DNA of 64,000 nt, taken from IMG/VR virus record IMGVR_UViG_3300020469_000009; one strand, written 5' to 3'. Each line of letters starts with the position of its first letter. Positions within the stretch are counted from its first letter, which is position 1. The stretch comes from a virus. Below are positions 17,640 to 35,331 of this stretch, in pieces. The position numbers and the translations under genes were made by a program. The notes below the pieces were generated by a model. The model was not told the origin of the DNA. It saw nothing but the letters and a program-made list of their open reading frames with translations, and searched no databases.

Positions 17640-17762
17640 GCATAAATCCATTTGATATTGCACTCTTAGAGAATTTTAAAAAAAATGTTGTGATGGGTAT
17701 AATCTATTCGTATGTTAAATTTTTTATTACATATGTTTAATTACGAAAGTAAGGAGGGCCAA

Positions 17763-18043: not shown

Positions 18044-18069
18044 AAAGGGAGCTTCGGCTCCCTTTTTTT
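18044..18069 (+). terminator. Rho-independent terminator with C(UUCG)G tetraloop
   Basis: AAAGGGAGC-TTCG-GCTCCCTTT followed by a T run. Confidence 0.9.
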
Positions 18070-18712: not shown

Positions 18713-20011
18713 ATGTCAAAAATAAAAGTAGGAATCATTGGAATTGGTTCCTGTGCCAAAAGCCTAGTTGAAGGCATTCAATACTACAACGAAAATCCAG
18801 AAGATAAAGTCGGTCTTATGTACGAAGATATCGGTGGATATGGAACTAAAGATATCGAATTTGTCTTAGGATTTGATATTGATGTAAGAAAAGTAAACAA
18901 ACCATTAGCTGAAGCTTTAAGAGCTGCACCAAATTGTTCAATGAATCATGTTAGTTCAATTTATACAAATGGTGATAGTAATTCTAGTTGTGTAAAATCT
19001 AAAGCAATGGTTTATTCAGCACCAGAACTAGATGGGATAGCACCTCACATGCATGATTATCCTGATGAAGTCACATTTGTAAATGGTGCAATACCAGCAG
19101 AATCATTTGAAAGAACTGTAGAGTTAATAAAGTATCATGATGTAGATGTTCTTATTAATTATTTACCAGTGGGTTCTGAAGATGCTACAAAATATTGGAT
19201 TGATGTTGCATTAGATGCAGGTGTTAATTTTGTTAATTGTATACCTACATTAATATCTACTGAAGAAGCTATGGCAACTGAACAAAGATTTATAGATGCA
19301 GGTTTAACAATTGTTGGAAGTGATATGCGTTCAGCTTGGGGAGCATCTCGTATGTCAGAAGTATTACAAGGTGCAATGCTTGATTCTGGTTTACAGGTCA
19401 CACAACACATTCAAATGAATATGGCAGCTGGTTCTACACAAGGTCAAGAAACTATACGTACGGGACGTACAGCAAATACAGACTTTTTGAATATGGCTAA
19501 ACAAGATAGATTAAAATCTAAACATATTTCTAAAGAAAATGTTTTAAAAGGTCAGAATATTGTAAGGGATGAAACAACAGCAGGTATGACACTATTTGCT
19601 GGTCCATCTTTAACAGTACAACAAAAACCAGGTGGTGAATACATTCCATCAGATAATAAGATAGCAAACTTTGATATAGTTGCTTATGGATTTGGTGGTG
19701 CAAGGTATGAAATGTCAGCTAGGTTATCAGTTCAAGATAGTCCAAACTCTGGTGGTGTTGTAGTATCAGCCATTAGGTTCTGTAGAGTTGCTAATGAAAT
19801 GGGTATTGTTGGTTATCTAAGAGGTCCAAGTGCATGGACACAGAAATCTCCACCAGTACAATTAAAAACTGATGTTGCAAAAGCTGAATGTGATGCTTTA
19901 GCAGAAAGAAAATTTACTGAAATGACTACAGCTCAAATAAAAGATAATAGACCTAAAGCAAAAGACTTACCACATACATTTCAAGCTGGAAAGACTGATT
20001 ATGAAAATTAA
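18713..20011 (+). CDS. ino1: Myo-inositol-1-phosphate synthase (Ino1/MIPS family)
   Basis: GIIGIGSCA..LV.G, YLPVGS..AT, FVNCIP, NTDFLNM, SK.ISK, DSPNSGG, KSPP. Confidence 0.9.
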   Translation: MSKIKVGIIGIGSCAKSLVEGIQYYNENPEDKVGLMYEDIGGYGTKDIEFVLGFDIDVRKVNKPLAEALRAAPNCSMNHVSSIYTNGDSNSSCVKSKAMVYSAPELDGIAPHMHDYPDEVTFVNGAIPAESFERTVELIKYHDVDVLINYLPVGSEDATKYWIDVALDAGVNFVNCIPTLISTEEAMATEQRFIDAGLTIVGSDMRSAWGASRMSEVLQGAMLDSGLQVTQHIQMNMAAGSTQGQETIRTGRTANTDFLNMAKQDRLKSKHISKENVLKGQNIVRDETTAGMTLFAGPSLTVQQKPGGEYIPSDNKIANFDIVAYGFGGARYEMSARLSVQDSPNSGGVVVSAIRFCRVANEMGIVGYLRGPSAWTQKSPPVQLKTDVAKAECDALAERKFTEMTTAQIKDNRPKAKDLPHTFQAGKTDYEN

Positions 20012-20381
20012 TACTTTTGATATTGATGGTGTTATAGACTTTGGTGATACGTACACGGGTGTACGGCCGTGTGCAAATGATATTATTATTACAGGTAGGT
20101 CTGTACATAGTGAAAGAGAAGCTACTGAAAAAATGCTTCATGCCCGCGGCATAAATAATATGTTATTTATGAATGACTTGCGAAAAGATGACCCTGAGTA
20201 CGGCCGTGAAGCTAGTGGAAGGTTCAAAGCAAAAATGATTACAATGTTAAAGAAACAAGGTTATGATATTGGTATGCATTTTGAAGATGATGAAATACAA
20301 ATCAAAGAAATTAAAAAAGAACATCCTGAATTACATATTGTACACTTGGTAAGACAAGACGGTATACATCCTTATGAATAA
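20001..20381 (+). CDS. Minimal (capless) HAD phosphatase
   Basis: FDIDGV, ITGR, K, HFEDD motifs I-IV. Confidence 0.85.
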   Translation: MKINTFDIDGVIDFGDTYTGVRPCANDIIITGRSVHSEREATEKMLHARGINNMLFMNDLRKDDPEYGREASGRFKAKMITMLKKQGYDIGMHFEDDEIQIKEIKKEHPELHIVHLVRQDGIHPYE

Positions 20382-21435
20382 ACTATTAGAAAAAAGAAAC
20401 GAAAATAACTTTCTAATATTTAATGAGTGGGTCAAAGAGTTCTTTAAAAGAGAATACCTAAGAGACTTTGGTGACCTAAATGATTATACACCCAGCCATG
20501 TTGCAATGAGAGAAGAAGTAAAGTATTGGAATCCTAATAGGTCTAAACATGCTGAAGTACATTGGTTAGAGAACTATGTGTTTGGTAGAGATGATATTAG
20601 TCTTAGAAACAAAATACTAAATGCAATGGCAGTTAAATTTGTAGGTATGCCAACACTTACATTAGTTGCTAGTAATTCAGCTGATTATAGTAATATTATA
20701 GACTTTGATAGATATGAAAAAGAAACAATATACAGACTTTTCATACAAAAAAATCTAAATGAAAATAAACATAAACTAGCTGTGTGGGGTTCAACACAAC
20801 TACAAACATCATTACAAACTGCAGCAAGAAATTATTGTAGAAGAACATACAATGACCCTGAGAAAAAGTTTCAATTATCAGATATGATTGACTGGATGTG
20901 TCATTTAGATAGACTTGGTTTATCTAGGACTGTGACAGACCAACAATCTACACTTGGTACTGTTTGTGAACACTTAAAACAGCATAGAGGTATTGGTCCA
21001 TATTTTTCTTATCATCCACCATGCAATTTTAGTAGAGCTGATGAATTACCATGTATTGATGAAGATGATGAGTATTGTTTAGTAGGGCCAGGTGCAAAAA
21101 GAGGTTTAGAATTTGTATTTCCAGATGTAAAATTTAGCAACAATGATATTATGGAAGAATATATTTTAGCTGTAAGAGATAATCAACATGAATTTTTTGA
21201 ATTTAAAAATGATACTGAACATGATTATTATAGAAACAATTTAGAGCGTGGTGGCAATTTAACTACCTTTGGTACAGAAATTACTTTTTGTCAGTTTAAT
21301 GTATTTCTTAGTATAAAAGATAATGAAAGAGCACAACAAAAAAGAATTGTACCATTAACATTTGATAGTTTTGAAACCATAGCAGAAAATTTAAACAAAG
21401 AAATGAATAAACCAACATTAGAGGCTTTTGTATGA
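20374..21435 (+). CDS. aGPT-Pplase-like (alpha-glutamyl/putrescinyl-thymine pyrophosphorylase clade) DNA base-hypermodification transferase
   Basis: HhH-like GIGPYFSY, D....VGPGAKRGL, E..FCQF pattern. Confidence 0.65.
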   Translation: MNKLLEKRNENNFLIFNEWVKEFFKREYLRDFGDLNDYTPSHVAMREEVKYWNPNRSKHAEVHWLENYVFGRDDISLRNKILNAMAVKFVGMPTLTLVASNSADYSNIIDFDRYEKETIYRLFIQKNLNENKHKLAVWGSTQLQTSLQTAARNYCRRTYNDPEKKFQLSDMIDWMCHLDRLGLSRTVTDQQSTLGTVCEHLKQHRGIGPYFSYHPPCNFSRADELPCIDEDDEYCLVGPGAKRGLEFVFPDVKFSNNDIMEEYILAVRDNQHEFFEFKNDTEHDYYRNNLERGGNLTTFGTEITFCQFNVFLSIKDNERAQQKRIVPLTFDSFETIAENLNKEMNKPTLEAFV

Positions 21436-21537
21436 TAGACTTTTTCTTTGTATTATTAATTATTCTTGGCTGTTTTAGTTTTTGTATTTTAGGACTATCT
21501 GGTAGATTACATTGGAAGAAAAAAAATAAAGGTAAGG

Positions 21538-22548
21538 GTGATGGAGGCTGGTAATATACTTAATTGCCCATTTATTCCTGTGGCAAAAAGAATAGCATCT
21601 CATAGAGGTGCTCAAGGTGTTATGTATGGTGACATGATTAAACAAGCTTATGGACAGTGTGATGTAAACTACGGTGGTGAAATACAAGAACATAATGATT
21701 ATGACACAATGTGGGTATATCATGGTAATGATTTTAGTGGAGGACTAAATATGTTTGGTGGTGTATATGGGTTTCCTTATGTACAAAACACTGTTAACTT
21801 TTCTAAGTTCAAAGGGAAGATAAAATCTATTGCTATTGATTTTCCACCTTACCATGAATGGATTAAAGATAAATTATCTAAAGCTAAAAAAGACCCACAA
21901 CCAGAATGGGCAAATGTAGATTTAGATAATTTAGAAAGAATGCATAAAGAAGCTGAAACTATAATACATCCAAATCAAACTAACAAATTAGTTATAGGTG
22001 ATTCACATTCTATTTGTATGTATAGACCTGGATGGACTATAAAAAGTATACCATTTAAAACACTCAATGGTATATTAAATGAGGGAATAGCTAATTACAT
22101 TCCAGATGAAGGTTTAAACTATAATGAAATAGAATTATACTTTGGCAATATTGATATAAGACATCATATTTGTAGAATGGATATTGATGTAAAAGAATTA
22201 GCTGATAGATATATTGAACAAGCAAAACAATTAGATGCAAAGATATATGAATTGTTGCCTATTGAAAATGAATCTAGAAAATTACCACAATCAGGTTATT
22301 ATAAAGGACAACCATTCTGGGGTACATGGCAAGAAAGAACTGATGCAAGAAATGAATTTAATGATTATATTGATAGCAAATATAGTATTATTAGATGGAC
22401 TGATAAATTACTAAATAGTAAAGGTGAATTAGATTTTGATTGTATGGAAAAACCTAAGTCAATACATTTAAGCAGAGAATACTATCCACATTGGAATGGT
22501 GTAGAATCAGATGCAATGTCACAAAGTTTGGAGGGTTTCTTTGGATAA
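21538..22548 (+). CDS. Conserved phage protein with SGNH-like C-terminal domain
   Basis: VIGDSHS, FGNIDIRHH, D...SIHL. Confidence 0.55.
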   Translation: MMEAGNILNCPFIPVAKRIASHRGAQGVMYGDMIKQAYGQCDVNYGGEIQEHNDYDTMWVYHGNDFSGGLNMFGGVYGFPYVQNTVNFSKFKGKIKSIAIDFPPYHEWIKDKLSKAKKDPQPEWANVDLDNLERMHKEAETIIHPNQTNKLVIGDSHSICMYRPGWTIKSIPFKTLNGILNEGIANYIPDEGLNYNEIELYFGNIDIRHHICRMDIDVKELADRYIEQAKQLDAKIYELLPIENESRKLPQSGYYKGQPFWGTWQERTDARNEFNDYIDSKYSIIRWTDKLLNSKGELDFDCMEKPKSIHLSREYYPHWNGVESDAMSQSLEGFFG

Positions 22549-23740
22549 TTTTACTTATGCAAGTATTGTGCCTCTTATAGGCGGTGAAACAATAGCAATG
22601 GAAAATGTTTTTGGTAAAAGACCTGAACATATTATGAGTTATTCAGGTTTCCAAGCTAATGAAGAACATTTGCTTAACCATTATAATAATGAAGTACCAT
22701 ATCATATTTTAGATGAAGGTAATCCTAAACCTAGTAAAGTGAATGTAGTAAATACTGTATGTCCATGTGCTGGTTTATCATCATTGTCACCACAAGCAAG
22801 TAGTGAGAATCATAATAATGATTGGATGAAAAAATCTACTGATTATGTTTTAAGTACTATGCAACCAGATGTTTTGTGGGGAGAGAATGCACCGAGGTTA
22901 GCATCTAAAATGGGTAGACCTGTAGTAGCTGAATTAAGAAAAATGGCTGATAAGTATGGTTATACATTTAGTATCTATCAAACAAAATCTATATTGCATG
23001 GATTAAGTCAAGTAAGAGATAGAACATTTTATTTCTTTTGGAAAGGTGATAAAGTACCTGTTATAGATTGGATTCATGAACCACATGAAAAAATAGAGGA
23101 TGCAATACGTAATGTTAAGTTATGTCCTGCTGATCCAATGAGTACTATACTTACAAATGAAAGAAAACCAACTGGCAATCCATTTTATAAGTATTGTTTA
23201 GAAGAACTTGAAGGTGGTATTACACATTCAGAATTTCAAGATAAAATAGAAAAATCTACTAATCCTTTAGACCATATTGAAAAACATACTAACTATAAAG
23301 TAGTTGGTGAATGGATGAAGAAGAATGGTTATGAAGGTGAATCAAAAAAATGTGAACGTATGTATGAAAAGTTAAAGTCAGGTGGTAATATAATGAGAAA
23401 AACTACTGAGATACCTAAAGATTACATTGGTGCTTTTGTAGGTCATATGCCAAGTTCACTTACACACCCAGATGAAGATAGATACTTATATGTAAGAGAA
23501 GCTTTATCTATGATGAGAATGCCAGAAGACTTTCAATTGTTGAATCCTAAAAGGTCACTTAATCATATATGTCAAAATGTACCTGTCACTACAGCTGAAC
23601 ATGCAGCAAGAGGTGTAAAAGCATTCCTTGAGGGAAGACTAGATAATAGAATGCTTGATACAAATTTTTTACTTCAAAATAATAAAGCACAAAAATTAGA
23701 TTACCAATCTAATACTTCACTGGAGGAGTTCTTTGGCTAA
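22511..23740 (+). CDS. DNA cytosine-C5 methyltransferase-like protein with degenerate SAM motif
   Basis: PCAGLS (motif IV), ENAP (VI), QVRDRTF (VIII), R.L.VRE....M..PEDF (IX), QNVP (X). Motif I reads VPLIGG rather than FxGxGG. Confidence 0.75.
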   Translation: MQCHKVWRVSLDNFTYASIVPLIGGETIAMENVFGKRPEHIMSYSGFQANEEHLLNHYNNEVPYHILDEGNPKPSKVNVVNTVCPCAGLSSLSPQASSENHNNDWMKKSTDYVLSTMQPDVLWGENAPRLASKMGRPVVAELRKMADKYGYTFSIYQTKSILHGLSQVRDRTFYFFWKGDKVPVIDWIHEPHEKIEDAIRNVKLCPADPMSTILTNERKPTGNPFYKYCLEELEGGITHSEFQDKIEKSTNPLDHIEKHTNYKVVGEWMKKNGYEGESKKCERMYEKLKSGGNIMRKTTEIPKDYIGAFVGHMPSSLTHPDEDRYLYVREALSMMRMPEDFQLLNPKRSLNHICQNVPVTTAEHAARGVKAFLEGRLDNRMLDTNFLLQNNKAQKLDYQSNTSLEEFFG

Positions 23741-24713
23741 GGTACTTATCACAGGTGGATATGGTCTAGTTGGTCATAGGGTTTGTGCTGAGCTAATGTC
23801 TGACAGTGATGTTAAACATGAAGTAGTTGTAGTTGATAACTATAATGACTATGGTGTAATACCTGAAAATGAAATGGAGTATACTTATAGAGCTAGAAAA
23901 GCTGTAATAGGTCATGTAAAAGATTACAATGTTGATATATGTTCTCATGATTTTGATGCTGTATTAGTAAAAGAAAAACCTGATATAGTGATACACTTAG
24001 CTTCATATCCAAGACAAGCAGTTGTAAATAAAAATCCACAACTAGCATCTCAAGTAATTATAGGTGGAACAATTAATGTAATTGAATCCTGTAAAAGACA
24101 TAATGTTAAAAGAATTGTATTAGCATCTAGTAGTATGGTATATGGAGAATTTGATGATGGTCAAAAAGAAACTGCCATTTGTAAACCGCAAGGTACTTAC
24201 GCAATAGCCAAACTAGCATGTGAACACTTAGTAAAAGACAGTGGGCTGGATTATACAATTGTAAGACCATCAGCAATTTATGGTGAATTAGATGTTAAAG
24301 ATAGAGTCATAAGTATATTTTTAATTAAGGCTATGTGTAATGAGACTCTCAAAGTAAATGGTGAGAATGAAAAGTTAGATTTTACTTATGTAGGAGATGT
24401 AGCAAAAGGTATGGCACAAATTATTAATAGTGATAAAACAATTAATGAAACTTTTAATCTTACAAAGAGTCATTCATGGACATTATATAGAGCTGCTCAA
24501 ATTGCCGTAAGTCTTGCCCAGTCAGGTTATATTGAAGTGGGAGATAAACATCCTGACTTTCCAAGTCGTGGTTCACTAGATATTACAAAGGCTAAAAAAG
24601 CATTTGACTTTTCCCCACGTGTAGACGTGGATGATGGATTTAGACTGTATTACCATTGGTTAAAAAATAGCCAATTCTGGTATAATTATATTACTGAAAG
24701 GAAAAAACTATGA
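23733..24713 (+). CDS. NAD-dependent NDP-sugar epimerase/dehydratase
   Basis: ITGGYGLVG, HLA, SSSMVYG, YAIAK, DFTYV.D. Confidence 0.92.
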   Translation: MAKVLITGGYGLVGHRVCAELMSDSDVKHEVVVVDNYNDYGVIPENEMEYTYRARKAVIGHVKDYNVDICSHDFDAVLVKEKPDIVIHLASYPRQAVVNKNPQLASQVIIGGTINVIESCKRHNVKRIVLASSSMVYGEFDDGQKETAICKPQGTYAIAKLACEHLVKDSGLDYTIVRPSAIYGELDVKDRVISIFLIKAMCNETLKVNGENEKLDFTYVGDVAKGMAQIINSDKTINETFNLTKSHSWTLYRAAQIAVSLAQSGYIEVGDKHPDFPSRGSLDITKAKKAFDFSPRVDVDDGFRLYYHWLKNSQFWYNYITERKKL

Positions 24714-25150
24714 GCAATCACATTAACGATATGAAAGTAGGCAAAGTAGTCGTCTTTGGATTACCTGGTGCTTTCACACCTACCTGTTCTTCAACTCACC
24801 TGCCTGGATATGAAGAAAAATATGATCAAATAATAGAAGCCGGTGCAAGAGAAGTTTACTGTGTATCAGTAAATGATTCTTTTGTTATGGATGCTTGGGC
24901 AAAAGACTTAGGTATTAGTAAAGTAAAAATGGTACCAGACGGAAATCTAGAATTCACTGACAAAATGAATATGAGAGTTTCAAAATCTAATATAGGTTTT
25001 GGTGATAGGTCTTGGAGATATTCAGTTGTTTTGCAAGATGGTGTTATAACAAAGTTATTTGAAGAAGAAGGTAAAGCCAATAATTTTGAGGGTGACCCAT
25101 TTAAAGTATCTGGTGCAGATAATATGTTGTCATTTTTAAAAGGAGAATAA
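24710..25150 (+). CDS. Peroxiredoxin (Prx5-like)
   Basis: PGAFTPTCS..HLP, SVND.FVM.AW, RSWRY. Confidence 0.93.
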   Translation: MSNHINDMKVGKVVVFGLPGAFTPTCSSTHLPGYEEKYDQIIEAGAREVYCVSVNDSFVMDAWAKDLGISKVKMVPDGNLEFTDKMNMRVSKSNIGFGDRSWRYSVVLQDGVITKLFEEEGKANNFEGDPFKVSGADNMLSFLKGE

Positions 25151-25408
25151 ATGGGACAATATGAAAATGAGGCCATGCCTCAGAAGGTAGTTATATACAG
25201 TAAACCCAACTGTGGATATTGTATCTCTGCAAAAAATATGTGTGAAACAAAAGGTATTAATTATGAATATCTTATGTTAGATGAAGATTATACTTTTGAT
25301 AAGTTTCAAGAGGAGTTTCCTAGTGCTAGAACTTTTCCACAAATAATATGTGATGATAAAAAAGTTGGAGGATTTCATGAATTTCAGCAAGTAATTGGTG
25401 GAGGATAA
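25151..25408 (+). CDS. Glutaredoxin
   Basis: CGYC, TFPQI, VGG. Confidence 0.9.
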   Translation: MGQYENEAMPQKVVIYSKPNCGYCISAKNMCETKGINYEYLMLDEDYTFDKFQEEFPSARTFPQIICDDKKVGGFHEFQQVIGGG

Positions 25409-25866
25409 TGAATACCATAGAAGCAGCTGATAAAAAATTTAATAACTGGGTTGGTAAAAAACATACTTCTAACTGGAAGAATATAGACCAAGAGTGGATA
25501 CAACTCTATGCCGGTCTTATGGGTGATGACCAACCTATCCATGTTGATGAAACTTATGCAAAGGCTACACCTTATGGAGGTATCATTGCACATGGATTTC
25601 TAATATTAGGTTTACTACCAGCATTTTCATATGAATTAGTACCACCATTTGCAGGACAAGTATTTGCTATGAATGTGGGTGTTGAGAATCTAAGAAATAG
25701 AAACTATGTAAAAGCTGGTTCAAATGTAAGAGCACACTTTACTTTAGAATCATATAAGAAAATTGGTAAACGTTTTAGAACTAATATTGCAATTGAAATA
25801 GAGATTGAAGGAGAGAAAAAACCAGCTCTTACTTGCAATTGGATCAACATGCATTACTTTGCATAA
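25408..25866 (+). CDS. MaoC-like hotdog dehydratase
   Basis: GD.QPIHVD..A...PYGG.IAHG.L. Confidence 0.88.
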   Translation: MNTIEAADKKFNNWVGKKHTSNWKNIDQEWIQLYAGLMGDDQPIHVDETYAKATPYGGIIAHGFLILGLLPAFSYELVPPFAGQVFAMNVGVENLRNRNYVKAGSNVRAHFTLESYKKIGKRFRTNIAIEIEIEGEKKPALTCNWINMHYFA

Positions 25867-27621: not shown

Positions 27622-28074
27622 ATGTTATTTGAAACATTACAAAGAGTCATCGAAGATAATTGTTATGATGACGAAAAAATAATCAGAGTTCAAGGAGTAC
27701 GAGATGGTAAAGAATACGTTCTTTATGAAGCGTGGTCCAGTGACGGAGAACTTGTCTTATCTGTAGCTGAAAAAGGAAGCAATGACTATAATAGAGTTGT
27801 GGATGAGCATACTAAAAAGCAAGCTCAAGAAAAATATAAAGAAAAAATAAATGAGTTTGAAAATATCATGTATAAAATTTGGGAGTTAGTAGACCATAGT
27901 GATCCAATACATGATAAGGTTGATGAAGCAGTCAGAAATCTTGAACATGAAACTGATTGGATAAATTCTTTTCAAGATGTAGAAGACACTCTTAGAATAA
28001 ACAAAGGCAAGATCGATTTTCTAAATGAAACACTTGCTAATTCTGAAAAATTAAATGCAGGATATGCATCATGA
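27622..28074 (+). CDS. Hypothetical protein
   Basis: AAGGAG SD; coiled-coil C-terminus. Confidence 0.55.
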   Translation: MLFETLQRVIEDNCYDDEKIIRVQGVRDGKEYVLYEAWSSDGELVLSVAEKGSNDYNRVVDEHTKKQAQEKYKEKINEFENIMYKIWELVDHSDPIHDKVDEAVRNLEHETDWINSFQDVEDTLRINKGKIDFLNETLANSEKLNAGYAS

Positions 28075-28853
28075 TTTTACTCTCGGGTCCATGTCAACAT
28101 GAGTCAGTGGAACACAGTGACTTTATGTATAAAGAAATAGCTTCAACTATAGATATGGTTGGCTTAAAAAGAAAAGATGAACATTATTTTAAAGCATCTT
28201 TTGATAAAGCAAATCGTAGTTCAATACAAGGTAAAAGAGGTGTTGGATTAGAACAAACACTAGCTGATTTTGAACAATTGAAACGTCAAAATCCTTTTAT
28301 GAAAATTATTACTGATGTACATGAATGTTGGCAAGTTGAAGTCATAGCTGAAGTAGTTGATGCAATTCAAATACCAGCATTTTTATGTAGGCAAACTGAT
28401 TTATTAGTAGAAGCTGGTAAGACAGGATTACCTGTGAATATAAAAAAAGGACAATTCTTATCTTATGAAGAAGTACCAGGTGTACTTTCTAAAATGGACC
28501 CTGACGGTCAAGTATGGATTACTGAAAGAGGTACAACATTTGGTTATAATAATCTAGTTGTAGACTTTAGAGGATTAGAATATATGAAACAATTTAAAGA
28601 TGATAATCCTAATTTCAAAGTTATATTTGATGCAACACATTCAGTTCAACAACCAGGAGCTGGCAACGGCAAAAGTTTAGGTAAAAGAGAATTTGTAGCA
28701 CCTTTATCCAGAGCTGCTGCAGCAGTAGGTGTTGATGGTTTTTTTCATGAGGTACATGATGCTCCTGATAGAGCACCATCAGACGGACCTAATATGTTAA
28801 CACCAGGACAATATCATAATATACTAGAACAAATTTTAAATGTCGGTCATTAG
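28071..28853 (+). CDS. kdsA: KDO-8-phosphate synthase
   Basis: GPC..ES, KASFDKANRSS, QIPAFLCRQTDL, KKGQF, ERG..FGY, DATHSVQ.PG, SDG. Confidence 0.95.
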   Translation: MILLSGPCQHESVEHSDFMYKEIASTIDMVGLKRKDEHYFKASFDKANRSSIQGKRGVGLEQTLADFEQLKRQNPFMKIITDVHECWQVEVIAEVVDAIQIPAFLCRQTDLLVEAGKTGLPVNIKKGQFLSYEEVPGVLSKMDPDGQVWITERGTTFGYNNLVVDFRGLEYMKQFKDDNPNFKVIFDATHSVQQPGAGNGKSLGKREFVAPLSRAAAAVGVDGFFHEVHDAPDRAPSDGPNMLTPGQYHNILEQILNVGH

Positions 28854-29424
28854 TGAAAGCAACTCAACTCAGAGAAACTGGAATCTAGATAAAAAGATAC
28901 CTTTAAATGTGTATGAGGAAATATATGAAGCTCTCATAGGTGCACCTTCAAAACAAAACTTACCGTACTATAAAGTTCATATCATACAAAATAGAGACTT
29001 GCTTGAAAAAATACATGCAAACACTATGGGTTATTTTGATGAGCAAGGAATCATAAGACCTAATGACCAAGTGCTTGCTAACATGGTAATCGCTTTTGAA
29101 GCATATGAACAGGACAATATTAAGTTCTATGCAGATATGGATGAAGAGCAGTATAATTATGTAGTGAAAAGAGACCAACAAATGGCAGTAGGTATAGCAA
29201 GTGGATATGTAAATCTTATTGCACATCAAAATGGTTTAAAAACTGGCTATTGTGCATGTTATCAAGATGGTCATTTAAAAACTTTATTAAATGCTGATAA
29301 TGATATTATCTCATTACTAGGTGTAGGTTATCCTGATACTAGTAAAGATAAAAATGATTCTCATATTGGTGATTACAAGTATCTACCACAGCCACCAAAA
29401 AGAATTAAGGTGGTACATAAATAA
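28840..29424 (+). CDS. Nitroreductase-family protein
   Basis: QRNW, APSKQN, GIASG...L.A...GL.TG.C, LGVGY. Confidence 0.75.
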   Translation: MSVISESNSTQRNWNLDKKIPLNVYEEIYEALIGAPSKQNLPYYKVHIIQNRDLLEKIHANTMGYFDEQGIIRPNDQVLANMVIAFEAYEQDNIKFYADMDEEQYNYVVKRDQQMAVGIASGYVNLIAHQNGLKTGYCACYQDGHLKTLLNADNDIISLLGVGYPDTSKDKNDSHIGDYKYLPQPPKRIKVVHK

Positions 29425-30659: not shown

Positions 30660-31070
30660 ATGAGTATCTTTAAAGACATGAATAATATGCATATGAAGTA
30701 TATGGTGCCAGTTGTGGTCAACCGTATGAATCCAGATATGCTACAAAAGTTTATAGCATTTAGACTTGAATGCTGCCAAGAAGAATTAGATGAAACTAAA
30801 AATGCATTGGACAATAGAGACAAAGAAGAAATTGTTGATGGTCTTATTGACCTTATCGTATTTGCTGCTGGCACACTTGATATACTTAAAGTTGATGGTC
30901 AAAAAGCCTGGGAAGAAGTATACAAAGCAAATATGAATAAGCAAGTTGGCATTAAACCAGAACGTCCTAATCCTTATGGATTACCAGACTTAATTAAACC
31001 AGATAATTGGGAGGCACCTACTCATGGCGAAAATACTGGAATTCTCGGCAAAGTCTTTAGCAAAGACTGA
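30660..31070 (+). CDS. MazG-like all-alpha NTP pyrophosphatase
   Basis: EELDE, E.VDGLID, V..ANM.K, KP..W..P. Confidence 0.8.
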   Translation: MSIFKDMNNMHMKYMVPVVVNRMNPDMLQKFIAFRLECCQEELDETKNALDNRDKEEIVDGLIDLIVFAAGTLDILKVDGQKAWEEVYKANMNKQVGIKPERPNPYGLPDLIKPDNWEAPTHGENTGILGKVFSKD

Positions 31071-31770
31071 TTTACACCCTAAAGTTTCTGATGTAAAGTC
31101 TCACTTTATAAGTGAACTTACTAATGAAAAGTTTACCGTTGATAGAAGTGGTTCAAAAACTATAGAATTAATTGGTGCTTCTTTTATAGCTGATGAACCC
31201 GCTATCTTCGGTAAACCCAATCAATCTTATATAGACTATGAAATACAGTGGTATGATTCTATGTCAACTAACGTCTATGACATCTATGGTGAACTTGGTA
31301 AAGAAGGTGATGGTGTTAATTCTCCACCAGCCGCTTGGCTAGCTACAGCTAATCAATGGGGTGAAATCAATTCAAACTATGGTCATCTTATATTTGATAC
31401 AAAATATCACAATCAATATGATTCTGTTTTTCAAGAGCTACAAGCAAACCCAGACTCTCGTAGAGCATGTATGATTTACAATCGTCCAAGTATACAAGTT
31501 GAGTATGATGAAAATGGTAAGAATGATTTTATATGTACTAATGCTGTGACATATTATATTCGTGATAACCAACTACATTGTGTTGTTCAAATGCGTTCCA
31601 ATGATGTTATCTTTGGCTATCGTAATGATTATGCTTGGCAAAAAGAAATACAAACTAGATTGCATGAAGACCTAAGTAATGCCGGTATTGAAGACCTTAA
31701 GATTGGTCAGATGATATGGCAAGTTCAAAACTTACATGTCTATGAAAGACACTTTGATTTAGTCAAATAA
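31024..31770 (+). CDS. dCMP hydroxymethylase (T4 gp42-like, thymidylate synthase fold)
   Basis: G.INSNYG, DFICTN.V.Y.IRD, MRSND..FG.RNDYAW (Asp at the TS Asn177 position), LHVYERHF. Confidence 0.85.
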   Translation: MAKILEFSAKSLAKTDLHPKVSDVKSHFISELTNEKFTVDRSGSKTIELIGASFIADEPAIFGKPNQSYIDYEIQWYDSMSTNVYDIYGELGKEGDGVNSPPAAWLATANQWGEINSNYGHLIFDTKYHNQYDSVFQELQANPDSRRACMIYNRPSIQVEYDENGKNDFICTNAVTYYIRDNQLHCVVQMRSNDVIFGYRNDYAWQKEIQTRLHEDLSNAGIEDLKIGQMIWQVQNLHVYERHFDLVK

Positions 31771-31920: not shown

Positions 31921-33078
31921 ATGACTAAAGTAGCTTTTATAGGTGCAGGAAAATTAGGTGGTCCAGTCTCAGAAATTATGTCGGAACACTATGAAGTAAA
32001 AGTGCACGACCCCAAACTCAACACTGATATGAAAGAGGTTTGCGAAGATGCAGACATAATCTTTGTTGCTGTTCCGACACCTCATCAACCTGCATACGGC
32101 GGTGATAAACCTACATACAATTTACCAGCTACAGACTTTAATTATGAAATACTAAAAGATGTATTAATTGATTTGAATGACTATGCAAGAGAAGATGCTT
32201 TAGTTGCAGTTATATCTACAGTATTACCAACCACATTTAGAAAACAACTTATTGACATACCAAAAAAATATAGATTAGTTTACAATCCATACTTAATAGC
32301 AATGGGTACAGTAAAAGAAGACTTTTTAAATCCAGAAATGATGATTGCTGGTGGAGACCCAGGTGATAGGGCTGAACTTATAGCATTCTATCAAGAAATT
32401 ATTACAACACCAGTAAGATGGGAAACAGGTACCTTTGAAGAAGCTGAATGTATCAAAGTTTTTTACAATACATTTATATCTATGAAAATATCTTTTGTGA
32501 ATATGATACAAGATATTGCTATGGAAATAGGTAATATGGATGCTAATATAGTATGTAATGCATTAGCTAAATCAAATATAAGAATTACATCAGAAAAATA
32601 TATGAGACCAGGACTTGGAGATGGTGGTCCATGCCACCCAAGAGATAATATTGCATTACGTAAACTAGCTGAAGATGTTAAATTAAAGTATGATTTGTTT
32701 GCATCAATAATGGAAGCAAGAGATTTTCAAGCTAAACGTATGTCAGAATATTTAGAAACATTTCAAATGCCAATTGTCATATTAGACTTTGGATTTAAAA
32801 TGGAATCAGATTTAACAGATGGTTCACCATCTTTGTTAGTAAGTTCTTTTATAGAAGAAGAAGAGCCGGATATGTTTAACAATCCGGATGTAAAGTATGA
32901 TACGTATCTTAGCTCACCGGCTGTTTATTTAGCAAGCCGAGGACCTAATCAAAACATGATAGATAATGTAGCTCATGGTTCAATAATAGTAGACCCGTGG
33001 GGAGATGACACAAGCGAGTTAGAGGTACCTGAATCAATTAAGATTATCAGATACGGTACCCAAGAATGTTTCCATTAA
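31921..33078 (+). CDS. ugd: UDP-glucose/GDP-mannose 6-dehydrogenase family
   Basis: GAGKLG, VAVPTP, STV.P, NP, E..K...N, GDGGPCHPRD. Confidence 0.85.
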   Translation: MTKVAFIGAGKLGGPVSEIMSEHYEVKVHDPKLNTDMKEVCEDADIIFVAVPTPHQPAYGGDKPTYNLPATDFNYEILKDVLIDLNDYAREDALVAVISTVLPTTFRKQLIDIPKKYRLVYNPYLIAMGTVKEDFLNPEMMIAGGDPGDRAELIAFYQEIITTPVRWETGTFEEAECIKVFYNTFISMKISFVNMIQDIAMEIGNMDANIVCNALAKSNIRITSEKYMRPGLGDGGPCHPRDNIALRKLAEDVKLKYDLFASIMEARDFQAKRMSEYLETFQMPIVILDFGFKMESDLTDGSPSLLVSSFIEEEEPDMFNNPDVKYDTYLSSPAVYLASRGPNQNMIDNVAHGSIIVDPWGDDTSELEVPESIKIIRYGTQECFH

Positions 33079-34109
33079 AAATATCTAACAATTATCAACA
33101 ACCATCAAGTTCGATATGGCAGCCTCTACTAGAGACTCTAAGAGAGAAGAAAGCTGTATATTGTTTTGAATATATGGGTGGTATGCATAAAGATAATTTA
33201 AAAGTTGCTAAAGACTTTTGGGAAGAACACTATGATAAAGACGGATATAAGATATTCAATATTGGTTTGGAACCTTGGTTTCAACAGTGGTTTCCATTAA
33301 AAGATGAATATCCATTTGATAAATGTACTTGGTGGCATTCACATGCTGGTCCACTCACTATGAACAATTGGATATATGCTCCATATTGGAAAAAGTCTGT
33401 AGATTGTACATTAGAACATGACCCATATAAACCAGTGCATCATAGAGTTGGAGCTGCATTGGTATCAAATCAAAAACAAAGAATGTTTACTTGGAATCGT
33501 AGACCACATCCTTGGAGAGTTGCTATGATACAAGGACTCTTAGAGAGAAACTTAGAGATGGAAATACGTATGCCACATCATAATGAAGAACCTGAAAGGC
33601 CTGGTGCTTTTAAACCACTGAAAGAACTCATACCACAGTGGGGTAAGTACAAACAAAGGATTACAAATGAAGGTGTTGATATTGAACCTGGTGAGAATGG
33701 AGCATTAAAAAACTCTTGGGAAGGAAGATGTGAACATACCTTTGAGGTGATATCAGAAACTACAGTTGAACGTGGTGGATTAGTCACCTTTGCTAGTGAA
33801 AAGACATTTAGAGCTTTAAGGTCTGGTAATCTATTCTTAGTGTGGGGACAACAAGGCCATGCTGCAAATTTAAGAACAAGAGGATGGAAATTATTTGAAA
33901 AATATATCAATTATGAGTATGATTTAATAGAGAATAATAAACTTCGTTTACAAAAGTTTTTAGATGAAGTTGAACGTATCTATAATATGTCAGATGATGA
34001 CTATGAAGATATGTGGAGTAATACGTATAAAGATAGAAAACATAACCAAGAGTATTCCTTACATTGGAATGCTTCAATAGATAGGTGGATGAATGAAGAA
34101 GCTCGGTAA
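33066..34109 (+). CDS. Putative glycosyltransferase-like protein
   Basis: C-terminal ISET...F.SEKT.R....F...G....L...G...F..YD pattern; follows ugd. Confidence 0.5.
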   Translation: MFPLKISNNYQQPSSSIWQPLLETLREKKAVYCFEYMGGMHKDNLKVAKDFWEEHYDKDGYKIFNIGLEPWFQQWFPLKDEYPFDKCTWWHSHAGPLTMNNWIYAPYWKKSVDCTLEHDPYKPVHHRVGAALVSNQKQRMFTWNRRPHPWRVAMIQGLLERNLEMEIRMPHHNEEPERPGAFKPLKELIPQWGKYKQRITNEGVDIEPGENGALKNSWEGRCEHTFEVISETTVERGGLVTFASEKTFRALRSGNLFLVWGQQGHAANLRTRGWKLFEKYINYEYDLIENNKLRLQKFLDEVERIYNMSDDDYEDMWSNTYKDRKHNQEYSLHWNASIDRWMNEEAR

Positions 34110-35331
34110 AATGAAAGGAACTGGTAAGAAGACATTACCACTTGGACAGTATGCCTGGGTCATAGGTAATGGTGTGACACGTCAGGGTAAAGATATGAAG
34201 AAGCTCAAAGACTATGGTATCTTATATGCTTGCAATTGGTTCTATAAAAAAGAATTTGCACCACATGTCTTAGTGGCATCTGATGAACCTATGACAAGAA
34301 CAATATTAAAGACAACACCAGGCTGGCCAAGAAACAATTGGTTCTATACTTGGTTTCCTAAACCTGGGTCTGGTGCAAAGAAGATACCCACACCAGAGAA
34401 GTTTGCAGCTGGTCCATCAGCCTGTTATATTGCGGCTAAAGTCCATCAACATAAGAAGATATTTCTGATTGGTAATGATTTCTTTGGAAAGGGTAGTACC
34501 TTTGATGTCAATAATCCAGATGATAATGGTATTATGAATAATCTATATGAGGGTGAGAAGCATTATGCTAAAGTAAAAGATGGTATGTTAAATGGAGCAC
34601 CAACATTTAGAAACTGGCAAAGACGATATCAATGGATTATTAAACAATTTCCTGATACTGAGTTCTATCATGTGGAACCTTTTGAAGGTAAGAGTCCACC
34701 AAGAATGATTGGCTTTGATAACTTTCATCAAATTACTTGGGATAATCTTATGGACCATATTGATAATGATGCAGAACTTATTGACATAAAGGTGATTACC
34801 GATGAGGATAAGGCCATTGCTTATAGTGATAACCCTGATGATATTAAAGCTGCAGTGGAAAGACAAATGGCTGGACAAGAAAATGTTATCTATCCTGACC
34901 TTATGCATGCCGAAGATGTATTGAAACTCAGAATACAAGCCAAACGTGAACAGCAAAAGCATGGAGATAAAGGTAAGGACATACTTTTAGAGTGTGATAT
35001 TAGTACACAGGCTGGACAATTTAAGATACAAGTACCCTGGATGGGAATGAAAACACCAGGAGGTGCCTATGTCTATCCCACCGATCAAGAGCAGCAGATG
35101 TTCTTTAATAAGGAACTTGAAGACCGTATGAGATTACGTATGGCCTATACTGGTAGTGAAAATGCCTTAAACGGTTTGCCCCGCGCAATAGTTCCCGAGG
35201 AGGCTTCGAAACCTAAAGACATATTCTTAACAGCTCCGCCTCCACCGAATATCCCAGGAGCACAGCCGATTATACCGTTTGAAGATAATGATACACAGAA
35301 ATCGGTATTACCACCACCACCAATCATATAA
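34093..35331 (+). CDS. Maf/DUF115 (sialyltransferase-like fold) protein with Pro-rich tail
   Basis: VIGNG..R, YACN, LV..D, IFLIG.DF. Confidence 0.55.
   Translation: MKKLGKMKGTGKKTLPLGQYAWVIGNGVTRQGKDMKKLKDYGILYACNWFYKKEFAPHVLVASDEPMTRTILKTTPGWPRNNWFYTWFPKPGSGAKKIPTPEKFAAGPSACYIAAKVHQHKKIFLIGNDFFGKGSTFDVNNPDDNGIMNNLYEGEKHYAKVKDGMLNGAPTFRNWQRRYQWIIKQFPDTEFYHVEPFEGKSPPRMIGFDNFHQITWDNLMDHIDNDAELIDIKVITDEDKAIAYSDNPDDIKAAVERQMAGQENVIYPDLMHAEDVLKLRIQAKREQQKHGDKGKDILLECDISTQAGQFKIQVPWMGMKTPGGAYVYPTDQEQQMFFNKELEDRMRLRMAYTGSENALNGLPRAIVPEEASKPKDIFLTAPPPPNIPGAQPIIPFEDNDTQKSVLPPPPII

Follow-up and report, generated by a model that had tools for sequence, protein, structure and literature searches.

A Candidate Cyclitol-Based DNA Modification Module in a Marine T4-Like Phage

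Overview of the Module

The IMG/VR virus record IMGVR_UViG_3300020469_000009 contains, in the stretch of 64,000 nucleotides analyzed here (the window), a compact run of six genes at 18713-24713 on the + strand. It is highly likely that this module serves DNA modification, and on balance we favor the view that after replication 5-hydroxymethylcytosine (5hmC) receives a cyclitol, which is probably myo-inositol. The strongest evidence that the module acts on DNA is a set of clamp-binding C-terminal tails which three of its proteins share with the DNA polymerase of related phages.

The first gene (18713-20011) encodes a divergent myo-inositol-3-phosphate synthase of 432 aa (MIPS; PF01658 and similarity to 1GR0), and the second (20001-20381) a minimal phosphatase of 126 aa from the haloacid dehalogenase family (HAD), which is always found paired with MIPS. 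They are followed by P3 (20374-21435), a helix-hairpin-helix (HhH) protein of the HMUDK_hel / aGPT-Pplase clade-1 type; P4 (21538-22548), composed of an N-terminal alpha/beta part and a C-terminal SGNH/GDSL domain; C5MT (22511-23740), which has the fold of the C5-cytosine methyltransferases (C5-MTases); and an extended short-chain dehydrogenase/reductase (SDR; 23733-24713) of the NDP-sugar epimerase/dehydratase family (PF01370, 1e-37). The likely start of P4 is the ATG at 21541. The original prediction for this stretch described a tight run of six genes with the first three overlapping, and the coordinates and spacing of the open reading frames (ORFs) bear this out. All six ORFs are found at the predicted positions on the + strand and mostly overlap, by 11 nt (MIPS/HAD), 8 nt (HAD/P3), 38 nt (P4/C5MT) and 8 nt (C5MT/SDR), the sole gap being the 102 nt from P3 to P4.

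C-Terminal Tails Shared With the DNA Polymerase

P3 ends in TLEAFV, P4 in SLEGFFG and C5MT in SLEEFFG. The polymerase tails used for comparison are those of gp43 from related IMG/VR records, and in related module-carrying phages gp43 ends in TATLDEFFG or NTIEDFFA. In T4 and RB69 it is this tail of the gp43 polymerase that binds the gp45 sliding clamp. Throughout about 45 related loci P3, P4, and C5MT always carry such a tail, while the L-[DE]-x-F form is absent from MIPS, HAD, and the dCMP hydroxymethylase homologue gp42. One lineage has another type of tail, and there gp43 ends in EAAGLF, P3 in ESDGLF and P4 in EATGLF. This co-variation with the tail of gp43 indicates one shared binding partner. 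Judged from these sequences, P3, P4, and C5MT very probably dock on DNA-bound clamps, and proteins tethered in this way would probably act on DNA. For the SGNH protein P4 the tail is the sole direct evidence of such a function.

The complex of the C5MT tail with the clamp trimer of the related locus L045 was also predicted. It scored 0.48 while the best control scored 0.00, with 61% contact agreement and a partner pLDDT (predicted local distance difference test) of about 40, which lends weak support to binding. The mark applied is reached by 51 of 78 solved complexes and by 2 of 108 mismatches; at scores of 0.60 or below only 5 of the 78 solved complexes passed, and all four passing mismatches fell in that range. 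A clamp-peptide complex of RB69 has already been solved, so the predicted pass may merely reproduce that known structure.

The tail may be used as a sequence mark for spotting DNA-acting enzymes in T4-like phages. Chance partial matches to the pattern occur; a baseplate protein encoded at 1987-2682 on the - strand (PF12322, 3e-47) ends in LEGLENFF and was rejected as such a match. In one sub-lineage (L017-L026, L035) the HAD protein has the C-terminus QLSLF, the consensus of bacterial beta-clamp-binding motifs, and this phosphatase may also work on DNA. The HAD protein of the window has no such tail.

Conservation of the Module in Related Phages

Linkage was counted in the 72 nearest IMG/VR loci that have MIPS and enough flanking sequence. 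MIPS is accompanied there by HAD (65/66), P3 (51/53), P4 (43/45), C5MT (36/39) and an upstream gp42 gene (52/58), and grouping of these genes by chance is excluded. The order gp42-MIPS-HAD-P3-P4-C5MT is kept in about 45 contigs as well as in abundant TARA contigs, and MIPS is immediately preceded by gp42 in most relatives. The relatives also have the module within the replication gene block, beside the genes for the clamp, the clamp loader, and the polymerase.

More distant relatives of P3 were retrieved by a profile search of 1.8 billion proteins. Two deep branches display the gene orders P4-MIPS-HAD-FkbM-P3 or P4-MIPS-FkbM-HAD-P3, in which an FkbM-type methyltransferase (PF05050) stands in place of C5MT. 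Several variants of the module show this exchange (L031:1092-1850, L041:9243-9968, L065:6319-6993 and L067:5634-6353). Some proteins (P0047, P0070, P0072) carry the FkbM domain as an N-terminal fusion to P3, and it adjoins P3 in nearer variants lacking C5MT too. The conserved core is thus made up of MIPS, HAD, P3, and P4. A protein encoded after P3/P4 in some relatives was considered as another replacement of C5MT, and turned out to be UvsX.

The original prediction listed the SDR among the genes of the operon. Most relatives lack an orthologue of it in this position, and it is hence an accessory neighbor and not a constant member of the module. Divergent SDRs adjoin the module in three other gene orders (L029, L049, L062), so that the SDR is probably a tailoring enzyme.

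P4 and P3 are fused in Aeromonas phages, and this fusion constitutes phrog_17781. Aeromonas phage 31 encodes, directly upstream of its fusion gene, a full-length vSGLT-type Na+/sugar symporter (ORF234c, L003:4223-5746; PF00474, 7e-53; 2XQ2, 9e-104). The symporter would be in line with a donor of the small polyol or sugar type, which is imported where it is not made. It is in itself unusual for a phage to encode a solute importer beside an enzyme of DNA modification.

The MIPS and HAD Genes in Other DNA-Modification Clusters

It had been proposed to follow the company kept by ino1 across phage genomes. Its companions in several unrelated groups of phages are genes for DNA modification, and not lipid or glycan genes. 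In Caulobacter phage Cr30 the order is a clade-2 amino-acid:DNA transferase gene (AADT; PF18724, 1e-52), a TAGT-like (TET-associated-glycosyltransferase-like) gene, and MIPS, with HAD two small ORFs further on. Ralstonia phage RP13 has HMUDK_hel (3e-47), MIPS, HAD, and the HMUD2 kinase in a row. The DNA of RP13 has been reported to be heavily modified by a modification that is so far unidentified (PMC13697223).

A different base is involved in the Menderavirus phages of Stenotrophomonas (Marzo), where MIPS and HAD, preceded by FolE and a small ORF, are followed by QueC and DpdA. The marine contig L138 (7275-12435) has DpdA, MIPS, HAD, and QueC, and its MIPS is 73% identical to that of the window. 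DpdA and QueC are both encoded within 10 kb of MIPS in L135, and DpdA in L140. As a side observation, DpdA of L138 ends in ISSFF, which resembles a clamp tail.

MIPS and HAD thus behave, to judge from gene content, as a portable donor-supply cassette serving at least three base-modification chemistries. Genes for the anti-CBASS proteins Acb1 (9e-15; L001:12631-13221, RP13) and Acb3 (2e-68; L061:13855-14655, Cr30) are found a few kb from MIPS, indicating that these regions of RP13 and Cr30 are counter-defense neighborhoods.

Properties of the Module Proteins

MIPS aligns over nearly its whole length (residues 3-394) with Ino1 of M. tuberculosis (1GR0) at an E value of 1.6e-54, and matches PF01658 at 5e-10 (39.9 bits, cut-off 27). 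The motifs GIIGIGSCA, which is the glycine motif for NAD, N.DF.NM, SK.ISK, DSPNS, and KSPP can be aligned with 1GR0, and none of them varies among the phage copies. Going by these similarities, the product of MIPS would be a cyclitol phosphate, and probably inositol-3-phosphate specifically. The HAD protein has all four motifs of its family (DxDx[TV], S/T, K, DD). Among 39 orthologues, those of Cr30, RP13, and Marzo included, no change occurs in D7, D9, G10, and V11 (DxDGV), the TGR block, the lysine, or the EDD block. Its best phage-family match is phrog_415, a PNK phosphatase domain (1.5e-7), while the match to Acid_phosphat_B (PF03767) is weak and below the cut-off.

P3 was predicted to be an aGPT-Pplase-like protein, and the HhH fold that this implies was found both by profile and by structure comparison. 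P3 matches the Pfam family HMUDK_hel (PF18723) with 36.1 bits, the gathering score being 25, over model positions 148-268 of 281 only, and its close homologues all carry a precomputed HMUDK_hel match. The top match in the PDB of its AlphaFold2 (AF2) model (pLDDT 87) is 8Z2N, the 5-PmdU glycinyltransferase gp46 of PaMx11 (Z 9.4, root mean square deviation (rmsd) 4.5, 239 residues aligned). It is followed by MjOgg (Z 9.3), OGG-type glycosylases, and DUF2419; about 40 of the top matches have the HhH glycosylase fold and are mostly DNA glycosylases. Among viral models (BFVD) the matches are the 5-hmdU DNA kinase of SP10 (TM 0.61) and clade-1 Pplase1. When the P3 alignment was used as a profile against the PDB, nothing meaningful was retrieved. 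Invariant residues of P3 are C217, C235, C306, E230, and E302.

Foldseek and structure comparison assign residues 147-320 of P4 to the SGNH fold (Z 11.5, rmsd 3.3, 160 residues aligned across 143-321). G154, D155, S156, and H157 (GDSH), G203 and N204 (GN.D), and H310 are invariant in 20 sequences, while the aspartate of the DxxH motif is replaced by glutamine. Residues 1-146 belong to no recognized family, and an ESM Atlas feature search with them gave no usable named cluster; the fold search of the same atlas with the whole protein returned viral hypothetical clusters only.

C5MT matches PF00145 at 8e-12 (45.6 bits, cut-off 22). The match covers model positions 64-320 only, and the N-terminal part that would bind S-adenosylmethionine falls outside it. 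In 20 orthologues, the most distant of which have 43% identity, there is no variation in PLIGGE, CPCAGL (motif IV, PC), GENAPR (motif VI, ENV-like), Q.R.R.FYFFW (motif VIII) or QNVP. Motif I reads VPLIGGE, which is conserved and is non-canonical compared to FxGxG. An enzyme whose catalytic cysteine, ENA and Q.R.R remain invariant while motif I departs from the canonical form might be thought to join C5 of plain cytosine to the carbonyl group of an inosose supplied by MIPS or the SDR, giving a cyclitol-cytosine linked by a C-C bond. C5-MTases reportedly add aldehydes to C5 of cytosine in vitro, as Liutkeviciute et al. are said to have found in 2009, and an NAD-dependent SDR is often adjacent. 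We nevertheless consider such a linkage hardly probable at all, as the tight linkage of gp42 means that cytosine has probably already been replaced by 5hmC, and as lineages that lack C5MT still keep MIPS, HAD, P3, and P4.

The Substrate Base

The hydroxymethyl precursor was predicted to come from a gp42-like gene at 31.0 kb. The encoded protein (31024-31770, + strand) is indeed a true orthologue of T4 gp42, the dCMP hydroxymethylase, with an E value of 1.1e-65 to 1B49/1B5E. Both the catalytic cysteine of the FICTN motif (Cys148) and Asp179 of RNDYAW, the residue specifying dCMP, are kept; the corresponding motifs are FMCTN and RNDYAW in T4 gp42, and entries for the D179N mutant read RNNYAW. 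This orthology indicates that 5-hydroxymethyl-dCMP is made and that the DNA carries 5hmC. Just upstream, at 30660-31070 on the + strand, lies a gene for a MazG-like nucleotide pyrophosphohydrolase (phrog_671, 5e-22), a candidate dCTPase, and a MazG-like gene is found upstream of gp42 in the relatives too. The 5-hydroxycytosine synthases of RB69 and DLP3 resemble MilA according to the published table (PMC13326640). An enzyme of that type is an unlikely identity for the thymidylate synthase (TS)-fold protein of the window, which has no match to MilA and matches T4 gp42 at 1e-65. ThyX is encoded in module-carrying relatives (L062:13450-14133), indicating that these phages have a separate source of thymidylate, as would be expected if the gp42-type enzyme is specific for cytosine. 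No T4-type glucosyltransferase was recognized among the ORFs searched around gp42.

Proposed Mechanism

In the first step the gp42 orthologue would make 5-hydroxymethyl-dCMP, as its orthology supports. MIPS would then cyclize glucose-6-phosphate to inositol-3-phosphate, as suggested by homology and conserved motifs, and HAD would strip off the phosphate, either to give the free cyclitol or after transfer. In the third step P3, P4, and C5MT would work on newly made DNA by means of their clamp tails; the targeting to DNA is supported by these tails, while the chemistry proposed here is more conjectural. P3 may recognize or flip the hydroxymethyl-pyrimidine and present it, as the homologous domain presumably does in the 5-hmdU kinases; the HhH module deals with 5-hydroxymethyl-pyrimidines in these kinases and in the amino-acid:DNA transferases. 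The carbon of the hydroxymethyl group would be activated by P4, C5MT or both, which would also join the cyclitol to it. In such a reaction a conserved cysteine could attack C6, the hydroxyl group would be lost, and an exocyclic methylene would form, to which a hydroxyl group of the cyclitol would add to give an ether. When given 5hmC in vitro, C5-MTases have been shown to attack C6 in this way. Attack by a cysteine on C6 with loss of the hydroxyl group is also the chemistry shown for the clade-2 transferases (PMC8989533).

The expected product is an ether-linked 5-(inosityl-oxymethyl)cytosine, adding 162 Da to 5hmdC. This adduct could be tailored further by accessory enzymes, such as the SDR here and the FkbM-type methyltransferase that replaces C5MT in relatives. 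A likely role would be to protect the DNA from host nucleases, a putative anti-restriction function.

The wider form of the proposal is tentative, and we hold it with rather less than even confidence. It states that SAR11-type T4-like ocean phages replace cytosine by 5hmC that is ether-linked to a phage-made cyclitol, installed at the fork by clamp-tethered enzymes with HhH, SGNH, and C5-MTase folds, neither kinase nor glycosyltransferase taking part. The same cassette would also feed the formation of cyclitol-thymine (Cr30, RP13) and of cyclitol-7-deazaguanine (Stenotrophomonas and marine phages).

Weighing the Evidence

A number of observations weigh against the attachment of myo-inositol to 5hmC. 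No P-loop 5-hydroxymethyl-pyrimidine DNA kinase is found in the 64-kb window, and a Walker-A survey, which yielded two proteins only, an AAA ATPase and the gp41 helicase, confirms what had been said on this point before. The ORFs searched gave no match to a kinase family either, and the known activation route is thus missing from the window. P3 did not match PF18724, the family of the clade-2 amino-acid:DNA transferases, even at E values up to 10, while in the same library the Cr30 neighbor of MIPS scores 1e-52. The aGPT-Pplase-like character predicted for 20374-21435 therefore holds for the HhH fold and the superfamily (HMUDK_hel, 8Z2N), but not for the clade-2 transferase type. We know of no proven catalytic activity in the HMUDK_hel / clade-1 helical-domain branch. 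Clade 2 is the clade with demonstrated transferase activity (PMC8989533).

As to the donor, MIPS scores 211 bits with TIGR03450, far under the equivalog cut-off of 638, its second-best PDB match is the five-membered-cyclitol-phosphate synthase 6K96, and the GDDIKS motif of Ino1 has become GSDMRS, a change common to most phage copies. Its product may on these grounds be other than myo-inositol. No publication on an inositol-bearing DNA base or nucleoside was found in the literature searched, where 'inositol' occurs only within the names of glycosyltransferase structural matches. The syntenic contigs furthermore represent one lineage and no independent events, the near-constant block within that lineage being a result of common descent. 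The original prediction, that inositol is attached to hydroxymethylated pyrimidines, thus gains from the fold of P3, the linkage of ino1 and the orthology of gp42, and loses from the missing PF18724 match and kinase.

The alternation of C5MT and FkbM could mean plain methyl transfer, and in the 44RR2.8t group of Aeromonas phages gp42 and the P4-P3 fusion occur without MIPS or HAD. These two points also speak for an explanation in which the clamp-tethered trio modifies 5hmC DNA by methylation, acylation, or addition of another small group, while MIPS and HAD make inositol for other ends and share the early operon. Inositol would then serve as a drain for glucose-6-phosphate, an osmolyte, a cofactor, or a regulator. 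C5MT and FkbM, which take each other's place, both have the fold of a methyltransferase, SGNH enzymes act as a rule as acyl esterases or transferases, and with no kinase in the window no activation route joining inositol to the base is evident. Nevertheless, MIPS and HAD stay beside P3 and P4 through deep divergence and gene reordering, and they have been inserted between the linked genes of two other DNA-modification systems, which is hard to explain if they have no role in base modification. We therefore regard this explanation as rather unlikely, compared with a cyclitol adduct on 5hmC.

Genes related to sugar metabolism raise another question. The regions 28071-29424 and 31921-33078 encode, on the + strand, a KDO-8-phosphate synthase (DAHP_synth_1, 3e-49), a nitroreductase-family protein, and a UDP-glucose dehydrogenase (UGDH), and the latter recurs near the module in TARA contigs (L062). 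The KDO-8-phosphate synthase and UGDH genes thus lie in the same + strand region as the module, which likewise weighs against the proposal, as does the published view that sugar genes of pelagimyophages act on lipopolysaccharide (LPS) and that restriction systems are rare in SAR11 (PMC7029224). If the cluster consisted of auxiliary metabolic genes for remodeling of the envelope or its glycans, inositol, the epimerase, KDO-8-phosphate synthase, and UGDH would feed the LPS or capsule of the host; the presence of the SDR and the two other sugar genes on one strand within 14 kb is in line with this, as is the LPS-related reading of such genes in pelagimyophages. The conserved partners of MIPS and HAD are, however, gp42 and the HhH and C5-MTase-fold proteins, situated within the replication block, and the latter two carry the tail of the DNA polymerase. 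The SDR is without an orthologue at this place in most relatives, the KDO-8-phosphate synthase is found in one related locus, and no glycosyltransferase or lipid gene is linked among the ORFs searched. A role in envelope remodeling is therefore very improbable.

Relation to Known Systems

One of the closest known systems is that of the 5-hmdU kinases and clade-2 transferases, which hypermodify thymidine (ViI, M6, PaMx11, PhiW-14, SP10; PMC8989533; 8Z2N). In both cases a TS-fold enzyme provides the pyrimidine, whose 5-hydroxymethyl group is, or in the window would be, modified after replication, and an HhH glycosylase-like protein of the same superfamily takes part; PaMx11 gp46 is the solved structure that P3 matches best, and the Pfam family of P3 represents the helical domain of the kinase. 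Genes for making the donor adjoin the transferase genes in that system as well, and O-linked adducts are known from it (serine in ViI). The module of the window differs in that the base is 5hmC and not 5hmU, in having no P-loop kinase in the window and no PF18724 match, in its SGNH and C5-MTase-fold partners and clamp-binding tails, and in the proposed donor, which is a cyclitol instead of an amino acid or polyamine.

The 5hmC pathway of the T-even phages, consisting of gp42, the dCTPase gp56, and alpha- and beta-glucosyltransferases, shares with the window a gp42 with Cys and Asp179, an upstream pyrophosphatase (here of the MazG type), a T4-like replication apparatus, and decoration of 5hmC after replication. 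No glucosyltransferase was recognized here, however, and the model requires no NDP-sugar donor; a carbocyclic polyol formed by MIPS and HAD would instead be attached by enzymes that are not glycosyltransferases. The arabinosyl-5-hydroxycytosine system of RB69 and DLP3 (PMC13326640) and TET-dependent glycosylation of 5hmC (bioRxiv 10.1101/2023.12.21.572611) resemble the module in that the enzyme making the cytosine-C5 precursor is clustered with donor genes, including one for a small HAD phosphatase. Those systems use GT-B glycosyltransferases and NDP-sugars, and the TS homologue of the RB69 type makes 5-hydroxycytosine and is MilA-like, unlike the gp42 orthologue described above.

The 7-deazaguanine clusters (FolE, QueC, DpdA) share the MIPS and HAD cassette in the Stenotrophomonas Menderavirus phages and in marine T4-like contigs, but involve another base and other transfer enzymes, and none of FolE, QueC, and DpdA is encoded in the window. 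We know of no 7-deazaguanine that bears a cyclitol.

The tail co-variation with the polymerase, the four-gene core with its FkbM exchange, the Aeromonas symporter, and the marine DpdA/QueC variant are newly shown here. The module is common; relatives of its MIPS are encoded in no fewer than 491 IMG/VR contigs, and P4 comprises more than 1100 sequence clusters, many of them from TARA Oceans. If the proposal is right, carbocyclic polyols would be a new chemical class among phage DNA decorations, and there would be a new enzymatic route for decorating 5hmC in which both DNA kinases and glycosyltransferases are dispensable. A considerable fraction of the viral DNA in the sea could then contain a base with effects on sequencing, restriction and CRISPR targeting, and on how much carbon the particles contain. 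The cultured carriers of MIPS and HAD (Cr30, the Stenotrophomonas Menderavirus phages and RP13) make the idea testable by mass spectrometry of nucleosides, and a cyclitol may turn out to be the modification present in RP13 DNA.

Genomic Context and Transcription

The window has about 33% G+C and encodes T4-type replication proteins, namely a gp32-like single-stranded DNA-binding protein, a gp41-like helicase, UvsX, and both subunits of ribonucleotide reductase. The nearest kin of the helicase are found in marine cyanomyophages and in the Methylophilales phage Melnitz. The source of the window is a marine T4-like phage, and probably a pelagimyophage. Megablast of the 6-kb region against the phages in GenBank gave no match.

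A candidate early promoter of the sigma-70 type (TTTAAA-17-TATAAT) is found at 17675-17703 on the + strand, at the head of the + strand unit. It is a consensus match only, and sigma-70-like sites are no more numerous in the region than in shuffled sequences. The + strand gene run reaches from this candidate to about 25.9 kb. It passes a terminator-like hairpin at 18044-18065, after which none is seen on the + strand before 26 kb. The promoter scan gave no late promoter TATAAATA within the operon.

After the SDR, the region 24710-25866 of the same unit encodes a peroxiredoxin (PF08534, 5e-24), a small putative glutaredoxin-like protein, and a MaoC dehydratase-like protein. These three genes are also present in the near-identical contig L008 and have no counterpart in the other relatives. 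Downstream of UGDH, at 33066-35331, there are two large ORFs (347 and 412 aa) belonging to no Pfam family, and one of them matches an unnamed PHROG only.

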